Assembly: GCA_044233345.1 (NCBI GenBank)
Contig: JBIIKD010000001.1
Location: forward strand, 1-45,483
DNA length: 45,483 nt
Source: Chlamydiia bacterium
GTDB lineage: Bacteria; Chlamydiota; Chlamydiia; Chlamydiales; 2-12-FULL-49-11
Direction of reading: 5' to 3'
Of this stretch, positions 23,212 through 35,833 are shown one piece after another. The position numbers and the translations under genes were made by a program. Each line of letters begins with the position of its first letter. The first letter of the stretch is position 1. Under the pieces are notes generated by a model. It made no database searches, was not told the DNA's origin, and saw only the letters and a list, made by a program, of their open reading frames with translations.

Positions 23212-24803
23212 TTGTTATTAATGATTTGAGCTACCAGCACGGAGATAGAGTCCTTTTTATGGGGGCAACCCTAAATTTGTCTAGCCGCCATCGCTACGCG
23301 ATTGTAGGCGCTAATGGGTGTGGAAAGTCAACCTTGCTTAAATTAGTTGCAGGGGATGTAACTCCCGATTTGGGCGAAATTATCCTTTCTAAGGGATCGC
23401 AAATCGGGTGGCTTAGACAAGATCAGTTCAAATATGAGGATGATCCTATTGTCGATGTGGTATTGATGGGGCGACAAGAGCTTTGGAAGTGGATGCAAAA
23501 GAAGAATGAGCTTTTGGAGTCAGAAGAATGGAGTGATGAAATTGGCCATGAAGTGGCAAAAGTTGAAGAGAAAATTGAGCACTTAGGGGGATATGCAGCC
23601 GAGGCAGAAGCAGAAAAACTTCTCATGGGACTTGGTATTGGCGTAAAATACCACAGTAAATCGCTTAAGACCCTTTCAGGGGGATTTAAATTGCGGGTGC
23701 TTTTAGCTCGTACTCTTTTTTCAAACCCGAATATTTTGCTTCTTGATGAACCAACAAACTACCTAGACATCGTTTCAATTGCATGGCTTGAAAGATACCT
23801 TAAATTTGATTTTTCTGGACTTCTCCTTTTTGTTAGCCATGATCGGGAATTTTTAAATCGTCTTTCTACTTGCGTTTTAGATATCGACTATGGAGAGATA
23901 CGGGAATATCCAGGCACATATGAGTCCTTTTTGGAGAAAAAGAAAGAGACGGTAGAAAAAATATTGCAAGAAAAAGCCCATATAGAAAGACGAGTTGCAG
24001 ATATTCAAACTTTTATTAACAAGTTTAAGTATAAAGCAACAAAGGCAAAGCAGTGCGCATCTCGTGAAAAAATGATCGACAAAATTGAGTGGCCCGATGT
24101 GAAGAAGAGCTCTAGAGTAGCACCTAAATTTCGTTTTCGAAAGAAGCGTCCCTCTGGGCAAACTGTTCTTCAAACAAAAGGGATCACAAAGGGATATGAA
24201 GATAAAATTGTTCTCTTTGATGTATCTTTCCGAATAGAGCGGGGAGAAAAAATCGCTATTATTGGTCCTAATGGAATTGGTAAATCTACACTTTTAAAGA
24301 TCCTTACCGAAAATTTGCAGGCAGATGAAGGCGCTTTTCAGTGGGGGTTTGAAACTCATGTTTCTTATTTTGCTCAAGAAGCTTCAGAGCTGCAAAAAAT
24401 GCCTTTACGAATCACTGATTGGTTAAAAGAGGCCACATCTGCCTCTGATCAAGAAGTGCGGGACGTTCTTGGCAGAATGCTTTTTTCTAATGATGATGCA
24501 AAAAAAACACTCAATATTTTAAGTGGTGGAGAGATAGCTCGCGTTGTGTTTGCTCGGATACTCATTGAACAGGGAAACGTCCTTCTTCTTGATGAGCCAA
24601 CAAACCACTTGGACATTGAATCGATCGAGGCTCTTTCAAATGCACTTAAGGAATATGAAGGGACCCTTCTTTTTGTAAGTCATGACCGCGCCTTTATTGC
24701 AGACCTCGCCGATCGAATTATTTTGATCACGCAAGAGGGAGTGCAAAACTTCCAAGGGACATTCGATGAATGTAAGGAAAAGTTAAACCTTCCTACGAGT
24801 TAA
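23208..24803 (+). CDS. ABC-F family ATPase (two ABC domains, no TM domain; EttA/YbiT-like)
   Basis: Two Walker A motifs (GANGCGKST, GPNGIGKST) and two LSGG signature motifs. 531 aa. TTG start with an AGGAG RBS. Confidence 0.88.
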   Translation: MIVINDLSYQHGDRVLFMGATLNLSSRHRYAIVGANGCGKSTLLKLVAGDVTPDLGEIILSKGSQIGWLRQDQFKYEDDPIVDVVLMGRQELWKWMQKKNELLESEEWSDEIGHEVAKVEEKIEHLGGYAAEAEAEKLLMGLGIGVKYHSKSLKTLSGGFKLRVLLARTLFSNPNILLLDEPTNYLDIVSIAWLERYLKFDFSGLLLFVSHDREFLNRLSTCVLDIDYGEIREYPGTYESFLEKKKETVEKILQEKAHIERRVADIQTFINKFKYKATKAKQCASREKMIDKIEWPDVKKSSRVAPKFRFRKKRPSGQTVLQTKGITKGYEDKIVLFDVSFRIERGEKIAIIGPNGIGKSTLLKILTENLQADEGAFQWGFETHVSYFAQEASELQKMPLRITDWLKEATSASDQEVRDVLGRMLFSNDDAKKTLNILSGGEIARVVFARILIEQGNVLLLDEPTNHLDIESIEALSNALKEYEGTLLFVSHDRAFIADLADRIILITQEGVQNFQGTFDECKEKLNLPTS

Positions 24804-26388
24804 TCCTTGCAATTTTTTGAATTTCTTCTGGATCTAAATTAAAAAGAATTACATCAACCCCTTTACTATTGAGTTCTCTTAATAGTTCAGGGGAAATGGT
24901 TATAAATGCATTATCCGCTATATTCAAGCTTTTTAAATGAGATAATGAGCTGAAATTTGTAGATATTTCATCAATTTCATTTTCTGAGCAGTTAAAATTT
25001 ATTAATCGATTGCAGTTTGTGAGTGATTTTGGAAGTTCCTCTAGAGCATTTTGGGAAATGTCTAACCACTCTAGTTGAGAGAGATTTCCTAAATTTGAAG
25101 GAAGTATGTAGAGATTGTTTTGCCTAAGCCAAAGTTCCTTTAAAGAGGTCATTTCACAAATCCTTTCATGAATTTGGGTAAGTTGATTGTGCTCCAAATT
25201 AAGAGAGCGCAGATCTTTTAAAGAAAGAAAGGCTGTCGGGTGTATTTCAGTAAGTTGATTGTAGGAAAGATCAAGAGAGTGTAATTCTGTAATAAAAGCT
25301 TCGTGGGAAAAAATGTGCGGTAAACAAGATAGGTTTAGTCCGCTCAGATCTAAACTATTTCCGTCGCTATCATTAATAAATTCCATAATGCGTAGCCATG
25401 CCATAAATCGGTTTTCTCCAGGGGCATCTTCTAAAGCCCAGCTATCGAGATTTGATATTGGATCTTCGAGCTGAATAAGATGGAGATTTTGTAGATCGTT
25501 AACTGACTTAGGGATCCCTTCCTTTTGTAGTTCGTTGCCGAATAGGGATAGTGTTTTTAAGCGTTCAACAAATACAACTCCGTTAAAAATATCGGGTAGA
25601 GAACGTAAGTGTAAATTGTTTAGATCTAATGTTAAGAGGGTTTTGTTTTCTATAAAATTAAGAATTCGATTTTTTGCCTCTTCTCGATTTTCTGTAGAGG
25701 AGCCTTCCATTGCCCAGGCATCTAATAAAGAGTATTCTAACTTAGGTTTTACACATATTATCGGAAGATCATCAGAAACTTCAATTTTAATAATTTGAAG
25801 AGCACTTAAGGATTTACTAGATATTTTAGAAAGGGCAGAAAGGGAAACCCCATTGATTTCTTGTAAGCATTGTAAATTTTCTAGTGAAGAAGGGAAGGAA
25901 GCGATTAGATTTCCATCTAAATTTAGAGTTTGTAATCTTGTTGTAAAAGCGCTATGTAAAAAAACATCAGGTAATGTAGTTAAATCAAAATCACGTAAAT
26001 CAAGAGTCGTTTCAGAAGGACTTTTGATAAATTCCTCAATCGCTAAAGCGGCAAGTCTTCTTTGTCCTTTGTTGGAGTATCCATCTTCAGTTTCAATCCA
26101 CGATGTTAATAAATGATCGATAGATTCCTCTCCGGAGGAAGAAAGTACAGTCCACTCTGATAAATGAATAGAGTCTGTAGATGCAAAATCTAATTGAATT
26201 GAGGGTGTTGAGGGGCTAACAGGTGAAGAAGGGGGAGTTTGAGTTGTTAATGCTCTTTTGAATGGAGCGGTTACTGCGTTTGCTATATCAGAAAATCGGT
26301 CCCAAAAAGAGGGCGTGGATGTTTGGGGGGCTTCTCTATTTTGGTTAAAATCGTTTATTGGTCTTCGTGAATAAAAAGCGGAATCCAT
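24793..26388 (-). CDS. leucine-rich repeat protein, T3SS-effector-like (IpaH/SspH-type LRR caps, no NEL domain)
   Basis: Pro/Ser-rich N terminus. Three ~70-aa modules each begin W..E...ENR..A..RI..FI....LDL..L.L..LP, followed by LxxLxLxxNxL repeats (LDLSYNQLTEI, LNLEHNQLTQI, LDISQNALEEL). Confidence 0.8.
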   Translation of the reverse strand: MDSAFYSRRPINDFNQNREAPQTSTPSFWDRFSDIANAVTAPFKRALTTQTPPSSPVSPSTPSIQLDFASTDSIHLSEWTVLSSSGEESIDHLLTSWIETEDGYSNKGQRRLAALAIEEFIKSPSETTLDLRDFDLTTLPDVFLHSAFTTRLQTLNLDGNLIASFPSSLENLQCLQEINGVSLSALSKISSKSLSALQIIKIEVSDDLPIICVKPKLEYSLLDAWAMEGSSTENREEAKNRILNFIENKTLLTLDLNNLHLRSLPDIFNGVVFVERLKTLSLFGNELQKEGIPKSVNDLQNLHLIQLEDPISNLDSWALEDAPGENRFMAWLRIMEFINDSDGNSLDLSGLNLSCLPHIFSHEAFITELHSLDLSYNQLTEIHPTAFLSLKDLRSLNLEHNQLTQIHERICEMTSLKELWLRQNNLYILPSNLGNLSQLEWLDISQNALEELPKSLTNCNRLINFNCSENEIDEISTNFSSLSHLKSLNIADNAFITISPELLRELNSKGVDVILFNLDPEEIQKIARINS

Positions 26389-26693
26389 AATAACTCACAA
26401 TTTAAAATAAATGTTTAATAAATAATAACATAATTAAAATTATAATTAAAGCGCATTTTTTGATTAATTAGCATGCAATAAATAATTAAGTTAAACTTAA
26501 GTCTTTAGTTTTAATGCATTTATGGAATAAAAAAATGTGCGCACCTTTAGTTTTTTTTATAAAATTTTTTTTATTTGATCGGGCTTTTTATTATAAACAA
26601 ACATTTGTTTATTACATGTAGATATTAAATTATTGATATTAACTTTGAATGCATGTACTATTTTCTTTTAATTATGTTCTTAGGAGAGTAATA

Positions 26694-28094
26694 GTGAAGA
26701 AGGCGCTCGCGAAATGTTTAATTCTATTAGTTGGTTTTTTTCAGCTCTTTTATATTCAAGGAGCTTTTGGTGGTTATCAAGAAAATAGTTCTGAGAAATT
26801 AGACCTCCCAAGTCAATTTCTTTGGGGAACAGCGGTTTCTGAGTTTCAAGTATCAGGTGCAGAAAATTGCCCAAACGCTCAGTGGGCTAATTGGGAATCT
26901 AAAGGAAGCCCTTATATTAAAACAGGAGATAGGACTGGTAAATCTGCAGACCATTGGAATCGATATAGAGAAGATATTCAAATAATGAAGGATATGGGGG
27001 TTAATTCATTCCGGTTTTCTATAGAATGGAGCGCTATTGAGCCTGAAGAGGGGGTGATTAATGAAGCTGCGTTGGATCATTATATGGACGTTTTTGATGC
27101 CTTAGATGAAGCGCAAATCACACCAATGGTTACTTTATATCATTTTACGCATCCAAAATGGTTTGAAGATTTAGGTGCCTTCGAAAAAGAGAAAAACATC
27201 GAATATTTCACTCGATTTTGTAAGCTTATTTTTCAAAGATTTGGAGATAGAGCTCCTCTTTGGTGCACAATGAACGAACCTAGCGTTATTGTTTTAGAAG
27301 GATATATGCTCGGAGAATTTCCTCCCGGAAAGAAAGATTATGCCCTGGCTGGAGAAGTTTATCGTAATTTGCTTTTTGCTCATTGTATGGTATACGAGGC
27401 CTTAAAGGCGATGCCTGGTGGAAAAGAGGCGCAAATAGGAATTGTTCATGCTTATTTAAAACTAAAGCCTTATCATACATGGAATCTAATTGAGTCTTAT
27501 CCTTGTTATTACATGAATGAAAATCTCAATAATGCAATGATGCGATTTCTAAAAACGGGCGTTTTTAACTTTTATTTTCCTTTTATGGTCGATATTTCGA
27601 CCCAATTTGTTGGTGCTCAAGAGATGTATGACTTTATTGGTCTTAACTACTACTCAAGCCCTTTAATTACGCTTCAGTTTTCTTTTTCCGATCCCCTTGT
27701 AAGCACTTGTTTTGAAGGTGAGATGATGACTGATATGCCTTATAGAAGTTATCCAAAAGGATTTTATGATGCTTTGGTGGATTGTAATTCTCTTCGTAAG
27801 CCAATCTATGTCACAGAAAATGGAATTGCGGATGCTAGAGATGATCGACGTAGTGATTTTATTGGAAGCTATCTTTCTGCTATGAATCAGGCAGTTAGAG
27901 ATGGGTGTGATGTAAGGGGATATTTTTATTGGTCCTTTATTGATAATTTTGAATGGGCAGAAGGATGGAAGATGAGATTTGGCCTTTATGAATTTGATCC
28001 TGTGACAAAGGAAAGAAAGTTAAAGGAAGGGGCAAAAACCTATCAAAATAAGATAAGAGAGGCTAAGCAACTTTCTTATGCACCTCGAGATTAA
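26694..28094 (+). CDS. glycoside hydrolase family 1 beta-glucosidase, secreted (signal peptide)
   Basis: GH1 catalytic motifs TMNEPS (acid/base) and YVTENGIAD (nucleophile), plus the FLWG.A.S.FQ N-terminal motif. GTG start at 26694, preceded by AGGAGA, gives the signal peptide VKKALAKCLILLVGFFQLFYIQGAFG. Confidence 0.8.
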   Translation: MKKALAKCLILLVGFFQLFYIQGAFGGYQENSSEKLDLPSQFLWGTAVSEFQVSGAENCPNAQWANWESKGSPYIKTGDRTGKSADHWNRYREDIQIMKDMGVNSFRFSIEWSAIEPEEGVINEAALDHYMDVFDALDEAQITPMVTLYHFTHPKWFEDLGAFEKEKNIEYFTRFCKLIFQRFGDRAPLWCTMNEPSVIVLEGYMLGEFPPGKKDYALAGEVYRNLLFAHCMVYEALKAMPGGKEAQIGIVHAYLKLKPYHTWNLIESYPCYYMNENLNNAMMRFLKTGVFNFYFPFMVDISTQFVGAQEMYDFIGLNYYSSPLITLQFSFSDPLVSTCFEGEMMTDMPYRSYPKGFYDALVDCNSLRKPIYVTENGIADARDDRRSDFIGSYLSAMNQAVRDGCDVRGYFYWSFIDNFEWAEGWKMRFGLYEFDPVTKERKLKEGAKTYQNKIREAKQLSYAPRD

Positions 28095-28507: not shown

Positions 28508-29872
28508 ATGGGATTGTCAAAATTAAAAAATCTTTTTCGCCTTTTTTATATAAAAAAAACACCGACTAAATCCCAAGAACAGGGTGTAAAAAAAGAAGAT
28601 TTTTTTTGTAATTTTCTTTGGGGATCGGCAGTTTCTGAATTTCAGGTATCGGGAGCAGAAAATTGCCCCCATTCTCAGTGGAGTGATTGGGAGTCAAGGG
28701 GAGTGCCCTATATTAAAAATGGTGATCGGAGTGAAAAATCGGTTGATCACTGGAATCTTTATAGAGAAGATATTCAAGAAATGAAGAAATTAGGGCTTAA
28801 TTCCTTTCGATTTTCGATAGAATGGAGCTCTATTGAGCCTAAAGAGGGTTGCTTTGATGAAACTGCTATAGACCATTATAAAGATGTTTTTGATGCTTTA
28901 GATGAATTTGAAATGACACCAATGGTTACCTTATATCATTTTACTCATCCGAAATGGTTTGAAGATTTAGGTGCTTTTGAAAAAAAAGAAAATATTGAAT
29001 ATTTTATTCGATTTTCTAAGTTTGTGTTTGAGCGATTCGGAAATAGAGCGCCTCTTTGGTGTACTATTAATGAGCCCTCTTCGATTGTTTTAATGGGATA
29101 TATAAGAGGGGAATTTCCTCCTGGCAAAAAAAAATTAGCCCTTGCAGGAGAGGTGTATAAACATCTTCTGGAGGGCCACTGTAGGCTATATGCGGCTTTA
29201 AAAGAGCTTCCTTTTGGAAAAGAAGCTAAAATAGGACTCGTTCATGGATATTTAAAGTTAGAGCCTTACCACTCATGGAATCCTATAGAAAGTATCCCTT
29301 GTTATTATATGACCAGAAATCTTCATGGAACAATGATGGAATTTCTTAGGAATGGAGTTTTTAACTATTACTTTCCCTTTAAGGCGAATGTTTTTGCCCG
29401 ATTTATTGGAGCTAAAGATATGTATGATTTCGTTGGGCTCAATTATTACACAAGAGCTGTGATTTCTATGCAGTGGTCTCTTTCAGAGCCTCTTATAGGT
29501 ACATGTTTTAAAAATGAAGTGATGACTGATATGCCTTATGGTATTTATCCAAAAGGGCTTTACGATGCACTATTGGATTGTAATACGTTAGGGAAACCAA
29601 TCTATATTACAGAAAATGGGATTGCAGATGCTGCAGATGATCGGCGTGATCGTTTTATCATTGAGCATATTTCTGCTATGAATCAGGCGATGCTAGATGG
29701 ATGTGATGTAAGAGGATATTTTTATTGGTCCTTTATCGATAGTTTTGAATGGAATAATGGAAAAGAAATGAAATTTGGTCTCTATGAATTTGATCCTACA
29801 ACAAAAGAAAGAAGACTAAAGAAGGGGGCTAAAATTTATCAAAACATTATAGAAGAAACAAAACAATATTGA
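28508..29872 (+). CDS. glycoside hydrolase family 1 beta-glucosidase paralog (no signal peptide)
   Basis: TINEPS and YITENGIAD motifs. About two-thirds to three-quarters aa identity to the upstream paralog by eye. Confidence 0.8.
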   Translation: MGLSKLKNLFRLFYIKKTPTKSQEQGVKKEDFFCNFLWGSAVSEFQVSGAENCPHSQWSDWESRGVPYIKNGDRSEKSVDHWNLYREDIQEMKKLGLNSFRFSIEWSSIEPKEGCFDETAIDHYKDVFDALDEFEMTPMVTLYHFTHPKWFEDLGAFEKKENIEYFIRFSKFVFERFGNRAPLWCTINEPSSIVLMGYIRGEFPPGKKKLALAGEVYKHLLEGHCRLYAALKELPFGKEAKIGLVHGYLKLEPYHSWNPIESIPCYYMTRNLHGTMMEFLRNGVFNYYFPFKANVFARFIGAKDMYDFVGLNYYTRAVISMQWSLSEPLIGTCFKNEVMTDMPYGIYPKGLYDALLDCNTLGKPIYITENGIADAADDRRDRFIIEHISAMNQAMLDGCDVRGYFYWSFIDSFEWNNGKEMKFGLYEFDPTTKERRLKKGAKIYQNIIEETKQY

Positions 29873-30051: not shown

Positions 30052-30555
30052 ATGAATCATTTTGCTCAAAAAGCAGCTTCCCTTTTTGCTTTGATGATTA
30101 CGATCATTTTAGTGATTACCTTATATATGTATCATATTGATAGGCAGGAGCCTTGCCCCCTTTGTTATCTACAGCAGGCTAGTATGATTGGAATTGCTTT
30201 AATGGAGCTTTTAAATGTACGATTTATGATTTGTATTCGGCATTATATAGGAGGGGTTTTATTTTCAGCTATTGGAGCAACGATTTCTTCTTATCAACTC
30301 TATTTAAATGATTTTTCTTTTTATTCCGTAGATGGAGTTAATTTTTTAGGTCTCCATCTTTTTGTTTGGTCATTGATCATTTTTTCCTGCAGTATAATAG
30401 GAATCATCCTTCTTCTTTTTCTTCCGAATGAACGGAAAAAGAAAGAAAAAATAGGAACGTTTGCTTGGATAGTAATTAGCTCATTCTTGATCGTAATGAT
30501 AGGAGTTGCAATTTCTTCAGCTCTTACAACATCTCATTTTAGCTGGTATGATTAA
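30052..30555 (+). CDS. dsbB: DsbB/BdbC-like disulfide bond formation protein
   Basis: 167 aa, 4 predicted TM helices. CPLCYLQQ motif in the first periplasmic loop resembles the DsbB/BdbC CxxC-Y-Q-R motif. Confidence 0.5.
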   Translation: MNHFAQKAASLFALMITIILVITLYMYHIDRQEPCPLCYLQQASMIGIALMELLNVRFMICIRHYIGGVLFSAIGATISSYQLYLNDFSFYSVDGVNFLGLHLFVWSLIIFSCSIIGIILLLFLPNERKKKEKIGTFAWIVISSFLIVMIGVAISSALTTSHFSWYD

Positions 30556-31115
30556 TAGTCCCATTTTGGAAAAGTAAGGAGCTTAGACTCTTGAACCTTT
30601 CTTGGTTTTGCAAGGGGAATCCCAAGTAGAAAGGAAATCCCTACATCAGTTGTTTGCATGCCAAGGGAACTTATCTTAGTGAAAATAGGGGTTTGAATTC
30701 CAAAACGAACTTGTGTGGGAGTAATAATTCCATACTCTGGAGCAAAACGAAACTCAAACCTTGATTGGCTAGAGTAAAGAGAGCCGACCGCTCTTGCAGA
30801 GGGGCCCAAAGCAATTGAAAAATACTGATTTCTTGGAAGTTGATGTGTGTAACTAGCGCCCCCATATAAAGTAAGTGTTGGGAGAGTAGTCATTCCACCA
30901 CCTAAAATTGGCTGGAAGATCCCGTTGTTTGTTTGATAACTGAAATTCATTGGTCGGTATTCCATTTGGAAGGAGGCTAAATCCCTCCCCCCAAACAGAT
31001 TCATTTCTTGGTCCCCTCCCATAAAATAAAGATAGGAGGAATTAGGAAGATCTGTGCTCGCCCATAGCGAACTAATCATAAAAAATGATGCAAATGCATT
31101 CCTAAATAGACTCAT
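30552..31115 (-). CDS. putative secreted / outer-membrane beta-barrel protein
   Basis: N-terminal signal-like segment, Gly/Tyr/Ser-rich amphipathic stretches, C-terminal aromatic residue (…KWDY). Confidence 0.3.
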   Translation of the reverse strand: MSLFRNAFASFFMISSLWASTDLPNSSYLYFMGGDQEMNLFGGRDLASFQMEYRPMNFSYQTNNGIFQPILGGGMTTLPTLTLYGGASYTHQLPRNQYFSIALGPSARAVGSLYSSQSRFEFRFAPEYGIITPTQVRFGIQTPIFTKISSLGMQTTDVGISFLLGIPLAKPRKVQESKLLTFPKWDY

Positions 31116-31125
31116 TTTAAACCTC

Positions 31126-31317
31126 TTAATCTTGGAAATCTCGATCCATTACAGTTTTGCGCTTGTCTGATTTTGCATTTTCGATTGCTTTATCGCAAGC
31201 TTTACGAATAATTTCTGACAAAGCTGAAGATGCAGAGGCTGCTGTATTCATTCCGCCTGTATCTTTGATGTATTTTTTCATTTTGCTGATTACAACTAAT
31301 GTCTCTTGTTCGCTCAT
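31126..31317 (-). CDS. histone-fold protein (archaeal-histone / Bd0055-like bacterial histone family)
   Basis: 63 aa. Helix-loop-helix-loop-helix pattern VISKMKKYIKDTG / GMNTAASA / SALSEIIRKACDKAIENAKSD / KRKTVMDRDF. Carries the (K/R)RKTV..D motif of H4 and archaeal HMf histones (GRKTIK.ED). Confidence 0.55.
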   Translation of the reverse strand: MSEQETLVVISKMKKYIKDTGGMNTAASASSALSEIIRKACDKAIENAKSDKRKTVMDRDFQD

Positions 31318-31398
31318 ATATTCCTACCTTTTTGTTAAAAAGGAGAAATTTTAACTGAAAACAGAATAGTTTTGCACTGAAAAAATAGATAAGTTCAC

Positions 31399-32691
31399 TT
31401 AGTAGATGTAGGGTAGAATCTTGTAGGGTACTTTTGAGCAATGTTCAGCCCAAGCATCGCCATATTTTTCTCTACACCGTTTATCATCTCGATTGGCACG
31501 ATCAAAGAGAAGAGCGGTTAGAAAAACTACATAAAAATAAGGAAAAAAATGACTGAAAAGAGCTGGAAGGGACCAGGAAAAAGCGGCTAGAATTTCAGGA
31601 ATATAGTGAAAGTGTCTTGCAAGACCCCAAAAACCAGAGGCGAGAAGAAGATTTTCTTTTTCTTGGCCACTATTTGTAATGTAAGTAGCAACAGTAAAAT
31701 CTGGGGAATTTTTCCAAATTTTTACATTTTCTCCATGTTCACGAAAAAGCATTCTTTGTCTATCGGCAAGATAGTTAGTTGCAATAAAAAGGGAACCTAG
31801 AAGAAATAGACCTAAAAGAAGAGTCGTTGACAGTTGTATTGGATGATGAACTAAATAAAAAGAGGTAGATGTGTACACTGAAGGGACCCACACAAGAGTT
31901 CCCCAGCAGATATAAAATCCTGCTTTATCATGCATGATGTCAATGGATCGAAGGTAGCCAGCTTCCCAATAAAAAAACTTTATCACGTAGATGATTTGTA
32001 AAGTAGTAGATAAAATTAGGCTATTTGAAAGACCATATAGTTCTGATTGAGCAGAGCAGTAGGATATAAGAAGAATAGGCCAACTCATCATTCCAAATCT
32101 ACAACTAGTGAATTGTTTTACGTCCCATCCACAAATTTTAGGGTAAAGTTCGGTGCCCCAGAAAAAATCGAAAGCAATATTTCCTGTAAACAGAGTGTCT
32201 GGACCAGAAGGAAAGAATTTTCCTTTTGCATAGAGAAGAATACAAAATAAGAAACTCCCTAAACAAAGAGCGCCAATAATTTCTCCAAAATGGAAATAAA
32301 TCAAGGTAGGAGAGAATAAATGTAGGCCAAATGAAAGAGTGACGTAGGTAAATATTGTAATCAATAAGGAAAGAAGACCGTTATCTTTATATTTGGGGAT
32401 ATAATGATTGGGAGTTTCTGGTCCTTTGATGATTTTTCCAGGAACCATTTTCAAAAGAGCAAGTTCAAAAAGAGCAAATACAATAATCGACGTCCAAGCT
32501 ACTTTAGATCCCAAAAAAACAGGAGCCCAAATCTGATACGTAGTAGAGAAAAAACCATGTTTTTGAAACAACATTAAAAGAAGTTTAAACGAGCCATCTA
32601 AAAAAGCCCCTGTATACCAAAGCAGTACAGCAAAGACCGGGCATGCAATGGTTAAAAAAATGGTCCCTAATGTATGACGAAAAAATCTCAT
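31399..32691 (-). CDS. sterol reductase family protein (ERG4/ERG24/7-dehydrocholesterol reductase-like)
   Basis: 430 aa, ~9 TM helices. C-terminal signature LLASGFWGLARHFHYIPEILAAFSWSLP ... GDAWAEHCSKVPYKILPYIY matches the eukaryotic sterol reductase family signature (LLxSGWWGxxRHxxY). Confidence 0.85.
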   Translation of the reverse strand: MRFFRHTLGTIFLTIACPVFAVLLWYTGAFLDGSFKLLLMLFQKHGFFSTTYQIWAPVFLGSKVAWTSIIVFALFELALLKMVPGKIIKGPETPNHYIPKYKDNGLLSLLITIFTYVTLSFGLHLFSPTLIYFHFGEIIGALCLGSFLFCILLYAKGKFFPSGPDTLFTGNIAFDFFWGTELYPKICGWDVKQFTSCRFGMMSWPILLISYCSAQSELYGLSNSLILSTTLQIIYVIKFFYWEAGYLRSIDIMHDKAGFYICWGTLVWVPSVYTSTSFYLVHHPIQLSTTLLLGLFLLGSLFIATNYLADRQRMLFREHGENVKIWKNSPDFTVATYITNSGQEKENLLLASGFWGLARHFHYIPEILAAFSWSLPALFSHFFPYFYVVFLTALLFDRANRDDKRCREKYGDAWAEHCSKVPYKILPYIY

Positions 32692-33608
32692 TCAATACCT
32701 ATATGTACCTTTAGATGGTTTTTTATTTGTTTTGCATCACGCGGATTTTTAGCAGTAACTGGCTCGATACAAACAAAAGAGGCTCCTTTAGGATGATATA
32801 ATTGAAAAGCATTTTCATCTGACGTGGTTTCATAGTTGATAATTAAAGAATATAATGCAGTTTCAAAAATCGCGTGACCTGTATAATTTGGTCGATTTGA
32901 TAAAAATCCAAAATCACTTTCTTCTTCTAAATTAAATGTGATTCCATGTCCATCTTTCCCCTCCCATTTTTTAGGAATAGGGCGCCATGTCCCCATATCA
33001 TTATAGGTGTTTTGAGAGTCTATTGATACTTTTGCGTCTCCTTGAGGAATCGCGTAGTAATAGTGTAGCCCTGCAATCGAGGGAGAACCGATGCTTTCTA
33101 CATCCATTTTAATATGTAGTCCATCTCTTAATAGAGAAGCCTTAAAAAGCATTTTAAAATCAAACCCTTCAAGAGCTTTTAGTGTAATTCCGTGAAAGGT
33201 ATCTTTCCCCGATAAATTTCCTTCAATTGCGGTTTCATTTGCATGCCAATTCCAAGGCACATACCGTGCGATTCCATGAGAAAAAGGTTCCTTGCATCCT
33301 TTCGCGCGCACTCGTTTAATGTGAGGGAAAATTGTTTCATCAGGAACGTGCGGAATAGAATTTTCTTTTCTATGATAAAAATGGGGCCCAATAATAGGTC
33401 CATATCCACCCATTTTTTCTTCGAATAGCCCTTTTGTTGATGGATCGATTAATTCTATATCGTCGATGGTCAGACTTTTCAAATTCATCCCATTTTCAGG
33501 AAGAAAAATAGCCTTCATCATTCGTCCATCAGTTTGAATTTGTTGCAAAATCACTTCTTTCATAAGATTTCTTTTCGTATCAAAAAAAAACTTACTACGC
33601 AAGAACAT
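32688..33608 (-). CDS. aldose 1-epimerase (galactose mutarotase-like) family protein
   Basis: HGIARYVPW (HGFAR..W substrate-His motif) and C-terminal FVCIEPVT (catalytic Glu motif). Its stop overlaps the sterol reductase start by 4 nt. N-terminal start is uncertain. Confidence 0.55.
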   Translation of the reverse strand: MFLRSKFFFDTKRNLMKEVILQQIQTDGRMMKAIFLPENGMNLKSLTIDDIELIDPSTKGLFEEKMGGYGPIIGPHFYHRKENSIPHVPDETIFPHIKRVRAKGCKEPFSHGIARYVPWNWHANETAIEGNLSGKDTFHGITLKALEGFDFKMLFKASLLRDGLHIKMDVESIGSPSIAGLHYYYAIPQGDAKVSIDSQNTYNDMGTWRPIPKKWEGKDGHGITFNLEEESDFGFLSNRPNYTGHAIFETALYSLIINYETTSDENAFQLYHPKGASFVCIEPVTAKNPRDAKQIKNHLKVHIGIE

Positions 33609-33644
33609 ATACGTAATTTAGAGAAGTTTGATAGAGTAGTTGCT

Positions 33645-34940
33645 ATGAATTTACATAAAGATGATATTTTTGAAGTTTCCGTGCATGACTTGGGTGTTCA
33701 TGGAGAGGGGATCGGCCATTTAGACGGGGTAGTTATTTTTGTGCAGGGGCTTTTGCCTGGAGAGGTCGGGCGTGTCCAGATCACAGAAGTGAAGAAAAAC
33801 TATTTGAAAGGCGCGCTTTTAGAAATTGTTAAATCATCTCCAAAGCGAGTAAAGCCCATTTGTCCTGTATTTGGTAAATGTGGTGGATGTCAAATCATGC
33901 ATCTTGATTATGAAGAGCAACTTGTTTGGAAAAGAAGACGAATTGTTGAAGCAATCCGCCGAATTGGGAAAGTAGAAAATCCAGAGGTTGCGTTAACTGC
34001 ACCATCTCCTAAAAAACTCCATTATCGAAACAAGATGCAGCTTCCTGTAAAGGGAGTTGAAATTGGTCTTTATGAGCATGGAACCCATAATATTGTTCCG
34101 ATTGAAGAGTGCTTTATTCAAGATGAAAAAGGGGAGCTGGTTTTTCAAGAAATTAAGAAGATCATTGAAAAAGAAAAACCAAAGCTCCGTCATATCTTGA
34201 TTCGTACAGCAAACGGAACAAATGATGTTTTAGTTATGTTAATTACTGAGGAAAAAATCACCCCACACATTAAACAAATCGCCTCCGAGATTAATGGGGT
34301 CGTAGGTGTTATCCATGGAGAAAATAGGGGCAGAGCAAATATTGTTCTTCCTGAAAAAGTGCAAAAAATTATTGGTAAAGAACGAATGAAAGAGCACATT
34401 CTGGGTCTTTCATTTCAGGTCTCATTACAAAGTTTTCTACAAGTAAATATTCCCCAAGCAGAAGCTATTTATCAAAAAGCCTACGAATTATCAGAGCTAA
34501 AAAGTGGTGATGCGGCAACAGACCTTTATGCAGGTATTGGAATCTTTGCTTGTTTTCTTGCCTCGAAAGGAATTAAGATGCATGCCATCGAATGCATTCC
34601 TGATGCTGTTGAAGACATTAAAAGAAACGCCAAGCAAAATGAAGTCAAAGTGGATGCATTATGTGGCATGGTTGAGGATCTTTTACACCATGTAAAGAAA
34701 AGCGATGTCTTCTTTCTTAACCCTCCAAGAAAGGGGTGTGAAGAAAGTGTTCTTAAGGTAGTTGCAGAGATGAATCCTAAGAAAATTATTTATACCTCTT
34801 GCAATCCTGAAACCCTTGCAAGAGATGTGGCTTACTTACGAGAAAAAGGATATCGCAGTGTGAGTTTTTATCCTTTTGACCTTTTTCCTCAAACTACACA
34901 TGTTGAAACATTAGCTCTTCTTTTAAAAACTGAAGTATAG
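33645..34940 (+). CDS. rlmD: 23S rRNA (uracil-5-)-methyltransferase RlmD/RumA
   Basis: TRAM domain, Fe-S cysteines CPVFGKCGGCQ, SAM-MTase motifs DLYAGIGIF and FLNPPRKG, and the nucleophile motif TSCNPETLARD. Internal ATG chosen to avoid overlap with the divergent gene. Confidence 0.85.
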   Translation: MNLHKDDIFEVSVHDLGVHGEGIGHLDGVVIFVQGLLPGEVGRVQITEVKKNYLKGALLEIVKSSPKRVKPICPVFGKCGGCQIMHLDYEEQLVWKRRRIVEAIRRIGKVENPEVALTAPSPKKLHYRNKMQLPVKGVEIGLYEHGTHNIVPIEECFIQDEKGELVFQEIKKIIEKEKPKLRHILIRTANGTNDVLVMLITEEKITPHIKQIASEINGVVGVIHGENRGRANIVLPEKVQKIIGKERMKEHILGLSFQVSLQSFLQVNIPQAEAIYQKAYELSELKSGDAATDLYAGIGIFACFLASKGIKMHAIECIPDAVEDIKRNAKQNEVKVDALCGMVEDLLHHVKKSDVFFLNPPRKGCEESVLKVVAEMNPKKIIYTSCNPETLARDVAYLREKGYRSVSFYPFDLFPQTTHVETLALLLKTEV

Positions 34941-34990
34941 AAAAAACGATTCTTCAAGTTTCTTGTGTAATATTTAAAAATTAAATTAAA

Positions 34991-35012
34991 CTCCCCCGTT
35001 TATGTGGGGGAG
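34991..35012 (+). terminator. hairpin CTCCCCC-GTTTATGT-GGGGGAG after rlmD
   Basis: 7-bp GC stem 50 nt after the rlmD stop. An A6T7 tract follows ~10 nt later. Overlaps the first ATG of the next ORF. Confidence 0.35.
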
Positions 35013-35014
35013 TT

Positions 35015-35833
35015 ATGCTCAAAAAATTTTTTTCGATATGTGCAATGGCGATTATTCTTCAAGGAAAGGAAGGTGTAATGGAGGAGTATTTGAAGTTTAT
35101 GAAAGAGAATCCGCAAGTATTTGGTGAAATAGGGGAGTATAAGCTTGGAAAAATAGAGATCGTGACAGATCTTAAGAAGATTGGGCAAATTGAAGAACTT
35201 CAAAAAATGCGATTTATTAAAAAAGGAATGAGTGCTCTTGAGGCAGAAACAGCAAGTCGCGTAGGGGTTATTTATAAGGATACTTATTGGATATGGGTAC
35301 GCGATGCTGTGATATTTCCAACAGGAGCTGGAGGAACTTATGATCGCTTGATACAACAATCTGCATTTCCAGATGGTATTCCAGGTATTGCTGTAATGCC
35401 TGTATTTCCAGATGGAAAAATTGGACTTGTTGTGAATTACCGTCATGCAACGCGTTGTTGGCAGTTGGAAATTCCAAGGGGGCATAAACTTGAAGGAGAG
35501 CCTATAGAAGTTGTTGTAGCCCGAGAATTAAAAGAAGAAACAGGTTTTGTAGTAAAAAGTATTCAGTATTTAGGGGATATCACTCCAGATTCAGGATGTC
35601 TTGCATCTATCATTCCTGTTTATATAGGATATGTTGGAAGCCAAGGAATCGCAAGTCCTGATTATTCTGAAGCTATTTTACGGATTGAACTGTTTACTTT
35701 AGGACAAATTAAAGAAGCATTTTTGAATGGATCGGTAGAAATAGAAATAAAAGGCAAAAAAGAGAAAGTAAAAGTGTGTGATCCTTTTCTTTCTTACGCA
35801 ATTTTTCAAGCAGAATGCAAAAAAATATTATAA
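35015..35833 (+). CDS. Nudix hydrolase (ADP-ribose pyrophosphatase-like)
   Basis: Nudix box RGHKLEGEPIEVVVARELKEETGF (Gx5Ex7REUxEExGU). Start is ambiguous (ATG at 35015, 35045 or 35078). Confidence 0.7.
   Translation: MLKKFFSICAMAIILQGKEGVMEEYLKFMKENPQVFGEIGEYKLGKIEIVTDLKKIGQIEELQKMRFIKKGMSALEAETASRVGVIYKDTYWIWVRDAVIFPTGAGGTYDRLIQQSAFPDGIPGIAVMPVFPDGKIGLVVNYRHATRCWQLEIPRGHKLEGEPIEVVVARELKEETGFVVKSIQYLGDITPDSGCLASIIPVYIGYVGSQGIASPDYSEAILRIELFTLGQIKEAFLNGSVEIEIKGKKEKVKVCDPFLSYAIFQAECKKIL

Follow-up and report, generated by a model that had tools for sequence, protein, structure and literature searches.

Does a lineage of Chlamydiota, bacteria that condense and decondense their nucleoid during development with the H1-like proteins Hc1 and Hc2, also encode a protein with the fold of the core histones and, if so, what kind of histone is it? 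The question is raised by an open reading frame (ORF) of 63 codons on contig JBIIKD010000001.1 of the Chlamydiia bacterium assembly GCA_044233345.1, of which we analysed a stretch of 45,483 nucleotides (positions 1 to 45,483 of the forward strand; hereafter the window). Bacterial histones are a recent discovery and, to our knowledge, only two of them, HBb (Bd0055) of Bdellovibrio and HLp of Leptospira perolatii, have been characterised. An initial annotation, made from the letters of the sequence, had proposed that the ORF encodes a small histone-fold protein akin to the Bdellovibrio and Leptospira histones, and sequence comparison, profile comparison and the predicted fold all support that proposal. 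The ORF itself, its coordinates, its motif and its neighbourhood are likewise as had been described. The gene and its ribosome-binding site are the following.

31126..31317, minus strand: histone coding sequence, ATG start, 63 amino acids, 7.0 kDa, isoelectric point 8.8; predicted to be of the HBb type (alpha3-truncated 'bacterial dimer')
31322..31329, minus strand: Shine-Dalgarno sequence AGGTAGGA, its last base 4 nt before the histone ATG

A conserved gene under purifying selection

The product of the ORF reads MSEQETLVVISKMKKYIKDTGGMNTAASASSALSEIIRKACDKAIENAKSDKRKTVMDRDFQD. The GC content of the gene is 36.5%, as compared with 36.7% for the window as a whole, and its Shine-Dalgarno sequence is kept as GGGTAGGA at the orthologous loci L002 and L003 (loci in other genomes are designated here by L numbers). 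In a word-indexed search, 5.8 billion proteins yielded 73 clusters of homologues with E values of 3e-31 to 8e-11 and lengths of 58–79 residues, and phmmer, run exhaustively on 1.84 billion representatives of clusters at 50% identity, gave 532 hits at E ≤ 1e-3, including 134 at E ≤ 1e-10. Scanning GTDB, with one genome per species, for the peptide RKTVMDRD and confirming the matches by tblastn identified at least 581 histone loci, a count that is a lower bound; among the matches listed, the best one in GTDB representative genomes is only ~70% identical, so that the species of the window is not one of those represented. When the gene was compared with its closest orthologue, at L002 (protein 87% identical), there were 12 synonymous and 10 non-synonymous differences, and the ratio of non-synonymous to synonymous substitution rates (dN/dS) was 0.17. 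The histone gene is under purifying selection. Conservation of the ORF, which the initial annotation had left as a point to check, is confirmed by the clusters, the genomic loci, the representatives and the dN/dS ratio alike. Running a profile built from the family on the window revealed no second histone-fold ORF there.

Synonymous divergence between the window and L002 (6001..6192) is uneven, dS being 0.41 for the histone gene and 1.07 and 1.68 for its two neighbours. Codon constraint, if the gene is highly expressed, could explain the low value; so could sampling noise, given that there are only 63 codons. We also note a 65-residue ORF (31157..31354, plus strand) that is antisense to the histone gene and recurs at other histone loci; it appears to be a by-product of the strong sequence conservation of the histone gene and not a gene in itself.

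The predicted protein is an alpha3-truncated histone of the HBb family

Searching the PDB with phmmer placed HBb at the top (8cmp and 8fvx, E ~5e-13), in an alignment that runs ungapped across residues 5–61, with HLp next (9qt0, E 5e-7). An AlphaFold2 model, built on a 73-sequence alignment from the database, has a mean predicted local distance difference test score (pLDDT) of 90.2 and comprises alpha1 (residues 3–21), loop 1 (22–26), alpha2 (27–50, 24 residues), loop 2 (51–57) and alpha3 (58–61, 4 residues). The monomer prediction that had been suggested as a check thus yields a histone fold with HBb as its best match. Comparing the model with the PDB by Foldseek gave the matches below, listed with template modelling (TM) scores and root-mean-square deviations (rmsd) for those to which they apply.

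HBb, free and DNA-bound (9ezz, 8fvx, 9f0e, 8cmp): TM 0.78–0.80, rmsd 1.7–2.3 Å, 53–55% identity
HLp: TM 0.78, 41% identity
Archaeal HTkC: 29% identity
Eukaryotic H2B: ~20% identity

Histones with an alpha2 that is 4–5 residues shorter than in nucleosomal histones and an alpha3 of 3–4 residues have been termed 'alpha3-truncated', and a 'bacterial dimer' category has been recognised within them (Schwab 2024, PMC11390915). The window protein has the features of this category: its alpha2 is 4 residues shorter than that of HMfB, its alpha3 consists of 4 residues, it carries the RKTxxxxD motif with an Arg-Asp clamp as well as lysines on alpha1, and it lacks the tetramer-interface residues of face-to-face histones (see below). 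The category was originally defined by sequence clustering; here the protein is placed in it by phmmer and Foldseek identity, both of which rank HBb before HLp (E of 5e-13 versus 5e-7; 53–55% versus 41% identity). In an hhalign comparison with the archaeal histone HMfB (E 8e-4), the window protein has a 4-residue deletion in alpha2, and its C-terminus aligns at HMfB L62, where alpha3 of HMfB has barely begun. For HMfB we used what we take to be the sequence of P19267, whose numbering agrees with the published R19 and T54, and for human H4 what is presumably the correct sequence. The 'three-helix layout' of the initial annotation therefore holds in truncated form only, with an alpha3 of just 4 residues and an alpha2 of 24 residues that leaves a four-column gap against HMfB. 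Its (K/R)RKTV-x-D motif needs a similar amendment: KRKTV is present, but the aspartate homologous to that of the RxTxxxxD motif in H4 and HMfB is D60 (RKTVMDRD) and not the D58 that 'RKTV-x-D' would imply. Residues R53-K54-T55-V56-M57-D58-R59-D60, together with S11, K12 and K14, are invariant across the 73 homologues, and the alpha1 Ser-Lys motif and lysines of HBb (S9, K10, K12 and K16) all have counterparts (S11, K12, K14 and K18).

By sequence and by modelled fold, then, the gene encodes a singlet histone of the 'bacterial dimer' family, of which HBb is the type member. The likeness to HBb extends over the whole fold and includes the length (63 residues versus 64–66), the short alpha2, the 4-residue alpha3, the S-K motif and the RKTVM-RD loop with its clamp. 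The two proteins differ in phylum, the window belonging to Chlamydiota, in that A56 of HBb corresponds to D58 of the window protein, as in most family members, and in the short C-terminal extension of HBb, which the window protein lacks. The resemblance to HMfB and to eukaryotic H4 and H2B lies in the histone fold and the RxTxxxxD motif of loop 2; in contrast to HMfB, the window protein has an alpha2 shorter by 4 residues, a mere stub for alpha3 and N24 in place of the sprocket arginine R19, and its identity to the histones of archaea and eukaryotes amounts to only ~20–29%.

A different assignment had been anticipated in the suggestion to search with PF09123/DUF1931, a family for which there was no hit even at E ≤ 10; in the Pfam scan at that threshold the only matches were CBFD_NFYB_HMF (PF00808) and two noise hits. 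We rejected DUF1931 also because the protein is a single 63-residue fold and not a pseudodimer doublet of the Aq_328 type, and because DNA-binding residues are present. On PDB 9qt0, 'DUF1931' is the name under which the depositors entered HLp. An H1-like protein of the Hc1/Hc2 type was rejected as well, since the same scan gave no Hc1 hit and the protein, with 12 lysines and arginines and 10 aspartates and glutamates, is not rich in lysine and alanine. Hc1 and Hc2 (HctA and HctB), nucleoid condensers of this phylum, are small and basic and compact DNA, but they are unrelated in fold and sequence, being Lys/Ala-rich and H1-like.

Two side observations concern the family as a whole and one residue within it. 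Among relatives in the library of 1.84 billion representatives, the top-scoring ones are tandem doublets of the HBb-type fold with 126–149 residues, and N-terminally extended forms also occur, one of which has a Cys-rich domain ahead of a doublet (216 residues); P0206, P0207 and P0213 belong to this set. C41 of the window protein (codon 31195..31197, minus strand) lies in the middle of alpha2, near the point where the two alpha2 helices of a histone dimer would cross; it is invariant in the 73 homologues, and its counterpart is C39 in HBb and Ile in the histone of Waddlia.

Conserved DNA contacts and missing tetramer interfaces

HBb contacts DNA through T8, S9, K10, K12, K16, N22, S24, K52, T53 and R57 (Hu 2024, PMC11317129). 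With an offset of +2 these positions correspond to I10, S11, K12, K14, K18, N24, A26, K54, T55 and R59 of the window protein, eight of the ten being identical; the clamp pair R53-D60 is equivalent to R51-D58 of HBb, and T55 to T53. The hydrophobic core of the handshake dimer, which in HLp comprises V16, I20, L35, L39, L47 and F63, aligns with M13, I17, L33, I37, I45 and F61. At the positions conserved in tetrameric face-to-face (FtF) bacterial histones (R49, N53 and R55 in HLp numbering) the window protein has N47, D51 and R53, so that only the clamp arginine is kept, and at the residues of the HMfB four-helix bundle (L46, H49 and L62) hhalign places N47, S50 and D63. As judged from these alignments, the residues for both known routes to a tetramer, FtF and HMfB-type, are missing from the window histone, and HBb too is without tetramerisation residues. 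A nucleosomal histone was rejected on the same substitutions, together with the R19 to N24 change, the lack of a full-length alpha3 and profile scores, given below, that fall short of their cut-offs. Bd0055 needed the substitutions A48H, S45F and I61L to join DNA ends like a wrapping histone (Hocher 2023, PMC10627809).

HBb is a dimer that bends DNA, binds along the whole Bdellovibrio genome without specificity and is indispensable. By homology we infer that the window histone dimerises, binds and bends DNA, and is abundant. Two 63-residue chains would pair head-to-tail through antiparallel alpha2 helices, and the dimer, probably an obligate one, would bind DNA without sequence preference, touching the backbone across minor grooves. 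Contacts would be made by N24, K54 and T55 of the paired L1-L2 loops, held by the R53-D60 clamp, and further ones by the N-terminus of alpha1 (S11, K12, K14 and K18) and, in the alpha3 stub, by R59. The bound dimer would bend the DNA and in doing so compact it, with no tetramers or nucleosome-like wraps being built, and the histone would act as an abundant nucleoid-associated protein. That the mechanism would be HBb-like is suggested by the eight contacts that are kept and by the absence of the FtF and nucleosomal interface residues, and its abundance by the published high expression of the Waddlia orthologue. At the level of the family, a role as a dimeric, non-specific, DNA-bending nucleoid protein is, on sequence and by analogy with HBb, highly probable; the exact mode of binding we put forward with less assurance.

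Several points weigh against this reading. Two of the ten DNA-contact residues of HBb are changed (T8 to I10 and S24 to A26), and the net charge of the window histone is just ~+2 at an isoelectric point of 8.8. The match to PF00808 scores 20.7 bits, as compared with a curated cut-off of 21.4, and the match to the NCBIfam profile archaea_histone, although it has an E value of 9.7e-7, scores 29.1 bits where the curated cut-off is 50, so that the comparison with archaeal histone profiles that had been suggested gives a hit that lies below threshold. Moreover, the binding mode of HBb is itself disputed, with an end-on sheath on straight DNA described in one study (Hocher 2023, PMC10627809) and bending in another (Hu 2024, PMC11317129). 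The sub-threshold scores account for NCBI labelling relatives 'hypothetical protein', the window protein being labelled 'histone H3/H4' by JGI. The family is under-called in genome annotation, since a protein just below the Pfam and NCBIfam cut-offs usually becomes a 'hypothetical protein'.

Alternative explanations

The dispute over HBb carries over to the window histone, whose dimers might bind end-on through one L1-L2 site and polymerise as a sheath on straight DNA, a 'nucleohistone filament' that would coat and protect DNA and not bend it; in a chlamydia such a coating could serve the compact infectious stage. The crystal structure of Bd0055 with 35-bp DNA shows a sheath of this kind, with 1 dimer per 2.5 bp and with N-terminal tails swapped between dimers (Hocher 2023, PMC10627809), and both the L1-L2 residues and a hydrophobic N-terminal 'LVV' segment are present in the window protein. 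No sequence feature discriminates coating from bending. Subsequent structures of HBb with DNA, together with molecular dynamics and assays in solution, however, favour bending, later papers call the first model superseded, and filament formation in vivo is described as unproven in the original study itself (Hocher 2023, PMC10627809); we therefore regard coating, the main alternative, as unlikely. It is extremely unlikely that the protein forms a stable tetramer that wraps ~60 bp, as do Leptospira HLp (PDB 9qt0-2) and archaeal HTkC. HLp is the second-best match by both structure and sequence (E 5e-7, TM 0.78, 41% identity), and the resemblance takes in the truncated fold with its shortened alpha2 and alpha3, the Arg-Asp clamp and the hydrophobic dimer core (R53, S50 and F61 are equivalent to R55, S52 and F63 of HLp). 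Two of the three conserved tetramer residues are nevertheless replaced (R49 by N47 and N53 by D51), the window protein is closer to HBb (53–55% identity), and published alignments place its Waddlia and Simkania orthologues beside HBb.

A role outside chromatin would make the protein an adaptor or specific regulator (compare DUF1931 and NF-Y/TAF-like proteins), a secreted mimic of host histones, or a partner of the neighbouring sterol reductase or of the downstream gene product p187. Prokaryotic 'histones' need not all organise genomes (Schwab 2024, PMC11390915), the host belongs to an intracellular-type lineage with eukaryote-like genes, the order of ERG4/ERG24 reductase and histone is kept in at least 5 loci of metagenome-assembled genomes (MAGs), and p187 begins after only 10 bp. 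We consider such a role very unlikely given that the DNA-contact residues and the clamp are conserved, that DUF1931 gives no hit, that histone loci in Simkaniaceae have another neighbourhood, that a transposase-like insertion at L002 leaves the histone unharmed, and that p187 is confined to the two closest lineages. Among the matches listed, moreover, the family occurs at ~60–70% identity in free-living Bdellovibrionota, anammox Planctomycetota and Nitrospirota, and a host-directed role therefore cannot be the core function of the family. The shortness of the ORF, the AT-rich genome, a neighbour from a typically eukaryotic family and the JGI label prompt the question whether it is a real bacterial gene at all: it might have arisen by chance, stem from eukaryotic or archaeal contamination, or have been acquired recently, along with the sterol reductase, from a eukaryotic host. 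That it is not a real bacterial gene is for practical purposes refuted by the hundreds of bacterial orthologues, by best solved relatives that are bacterial (eukaryotic H2B and H4 being only ~20% identical), by a GC content of 36.5% versus 36.7%, by the dN/dS of 0.17 and by chlamydial NusA, IF-2 and S1 on the same 45-kb contig. Finally, the histone might be no constitutive housekeeping protein and might instead organise the nucleoid at one stage of the biphasic cycle, alongside Hc1/Hc2 or HU or instead of them, and be bicistronic with an envelope-like p187; we think this decidedly unlikely. In a bolder variant, it may be secreted and act on host chromatin by mimicking histones. Either is suggested by the neighbouring genes and by analogy with the compact nucleoid of attack-phase Bdellovibrio, and by nothing besides.

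Histones elsewhere in Chlamydiota

The initial annotation held that core-histone-fold proteins are not what Chlamydiae are known for, a statement that is outdated. Among the entries of Supplementary Table 1 of Hocher 2023 (PMC10627809) are Waddlia chondrophila ADI38622.1, Simkania negevensis CCB88880.1 with its tailed paralogue CCB88888.1, a Waddliaceae MAG and two histones from 'Chlamydiae bacterium' MAGs. The same study presents a cladogram of chlamydial histones (Fig. S12) and describes the Waddlia gene as highly expressed; in the portion of its table that covers Protochlamydia amoebophila and Parachlamydia acanthamoebae, these species apparently have genome-assembly entries only, with no histone sequence beside them, which is weak evidence of absence (Hocher 2023, PMC10627809). 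Chlamydiota have since been named as a phylum with 'bacterial dimer' histones (Schwab 2024, PMC11390915; Hu 2024, PMC11317129), and the alignment of Hu 2025 (Fig. 1b) includes the Waddlia and Simkania proteins.

Aligned without gaps, the window histone is 62% identical to each of the Waddlia (ADI38622.1/D6YWW1) and Simkania (CCB88880.1/F8L7X8) histones, which share its motifs. Its lineage is an uncultured clade different from both, with a histone neighbourhood unlike that of Simkaniaceae. On sequence, the window histone is the representative, in a further uncultured chlamydial lineage, of a family already described in the phylum; the gene adds one such lineage to the published list and leaves the existing picture unchanged. 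Waddlia has both hctA and a histone-fold gene, and Waddlia and Simkania, as cultivable carriers, are useful experimental systems.

In a neighbour-joining tree of 88 histones, built on 60 residues and without bootstrap, the window protein falls among chlamydial sequences. The syntenic orthologues from L011, L019, L050, L018 and L075 fall elsewhere in the same tree, in which vertical descent and transfer are not separable.

Gene order and transcription

The genes and the candidate signal that flank the histone coding sequence are listed here.

31399..32691, minus strand: full-length ERG4/ERG24 sterol reductase, 430 amino acids (Pfam ERG4_ERG24, 1.2e-71, 242 bits), the upstream neighbour
31348..31377, minus strand: putative promoter of the histone gene itself, with a weak -35 element GTGCAA (31377..31372), an 18-nt spacer and a -10 element TAAAAT (31353..31348)
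30552..31115, minus strand: p187, an orphan gene for a protein of 187 amino acids, which starts 10 bp past the histone stop codon and has a Shine-Dalgarno sequence of its own, GAGG (TAA-GAGGTTTAAA-ATG)

The reductase had been reported as lying directly upstream on the same strand, and its identity, the shared minus strand and a spacer of exactly 81 bp are all borne out; among solved structures, its closest match is the delta(14)-sterol reductase of PDB 4quv (1.2e-53). Reductases of the ERG4/ERG24 type have long been known in chlamydia-related bacteria. What the adjacency reflects is conserved synteny and not an operon. The order NUDIX (minus), TrmA-like methyltransferase (minus), 306-residue protein, ERG4_ERG24 and histone (31399..35833 in the window) is kept in L002, L011, L019 and L050, and spans a chlamydial clade whose NusA proteins are only 77–80% identical. 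At L018 and L075 the position of the reductase is taken by an ERG4-like ORF of 219–251 residues, which could be a truncated or a different member of the family, and at histone loci of Simkaniaceae the neighbourhood is different. At L002 a transposase-like HTH_Tnp_4 ORF (5228..5692, minus strand) is inserted between reductase and histone, and the histone gene there retains ~75 bp of proximal upstream sequence, including GTGCAA-N18-TAAAAT and the ribosome-binding site. Since this insertion splits the pair while the histone gene keeps its upstream block, the adjacency is best read as an inherited gene order in one chlamydial clade and not as an operon; across that clade the histone gene is stably held at one locus under purifying selection. 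We also discarded the idea of a eukaryote-derived island comprising histone and reductase, because the relatives of the histone are bacterial, the GC content is even and an insertion can separate the two genes.

The histone gene probably has its own promoter, as similarity to the window resumes ~75 bp before the ATG at L002 despite the inserted gene. The window shares the block TTTTTTCAGTGCA(A/C)AACTATTCT...TAAAAT with L002/L003 as a conserved element, though a different gene lies upstream in L002. The candidate promoter falls below the threshold of a consensus scan, which found no sigma-70-type promoter on the minus strand; the single terminator-like site that the scan found on this strand lies inside p187 and not at the histone gene. 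By eye, no sigma-28-like GCCGATA element is apparent in the 81-bp spacer, and an Rfam search of the window returned four tRNAs only, with nothing near the histone gene.

Downstream, the 10-bp gap between histone and p187 recurs in L001–L004, which makes co-transcription likely, and the two genes are probably transcribed together. Homologues of p187 form only 2 clusters, itself and one relative, in the 5.8 billion proteins; it has no Pfam hit, and its AlphaFold2 model (pLDDT 31) is unusable. The p187 protein has an N-terminal hydrophobic segment and a beta-rich predicted secondary structure, and its gene converges on a DsbB gene with a 4-bp overlap. On the other side of the histone gene, the coding sequence for the 306-residue protein (32688..33608, minus strand) overlaps the start of the reductase by 4 bp and is conserved in L002, L011 and L019. 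No Pfam family matches the protein, which in the PDB shows only weak similarity, to Slr1438 (3k25, E 0.08); it is likely an operon partner of ERG4/ERG24.

Host lineage and other genes of the window

The contig also encodes IF-2, NusA, S1, EF-P and AccC, and NusA supports the earlier description of the genome as Chlamydiae-like. The nearest NusA relatives are 77–80% identical, the named ones coming from 'Chlamydiae bacterium' MAGs and from one MAG labelled Verrucomicrobia, and identity to the NusA proteins of Simkaniaceae and Parachlamydiales is 63–64%. By these values the window comes from a lineage of Chlamydiota that is uncultured and differs from the named families, and a placement in Parachlamydiaceae, a family across which conservation was to have been checked, is not indicated.

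Two tandem, closely similar paralogues of glycoside hydrolase family 1 (26649..28094 and 28508..29872, plus strand; 481 and 454 amino acids) lie near the histone gene, and in relatives a gene of this family occurs close to the histone as well (L018 and the P0002 contig). A 531-residue protein (24793..26388, minus strand) has C-terminal leucine-rich repeats (LRR_8, 7e-18; weak LRR_TTSS) and a Pro/Ser-rich N-terminus, and is possibly a secreted effector, a type of protein common in intracellular bacteria. A GTG-started ORF of 160 residues (18720..19202, minus strand) overlaps tRNA-Thr and tRNA-Tyr on the opposite strand and is almost certainly spurious.

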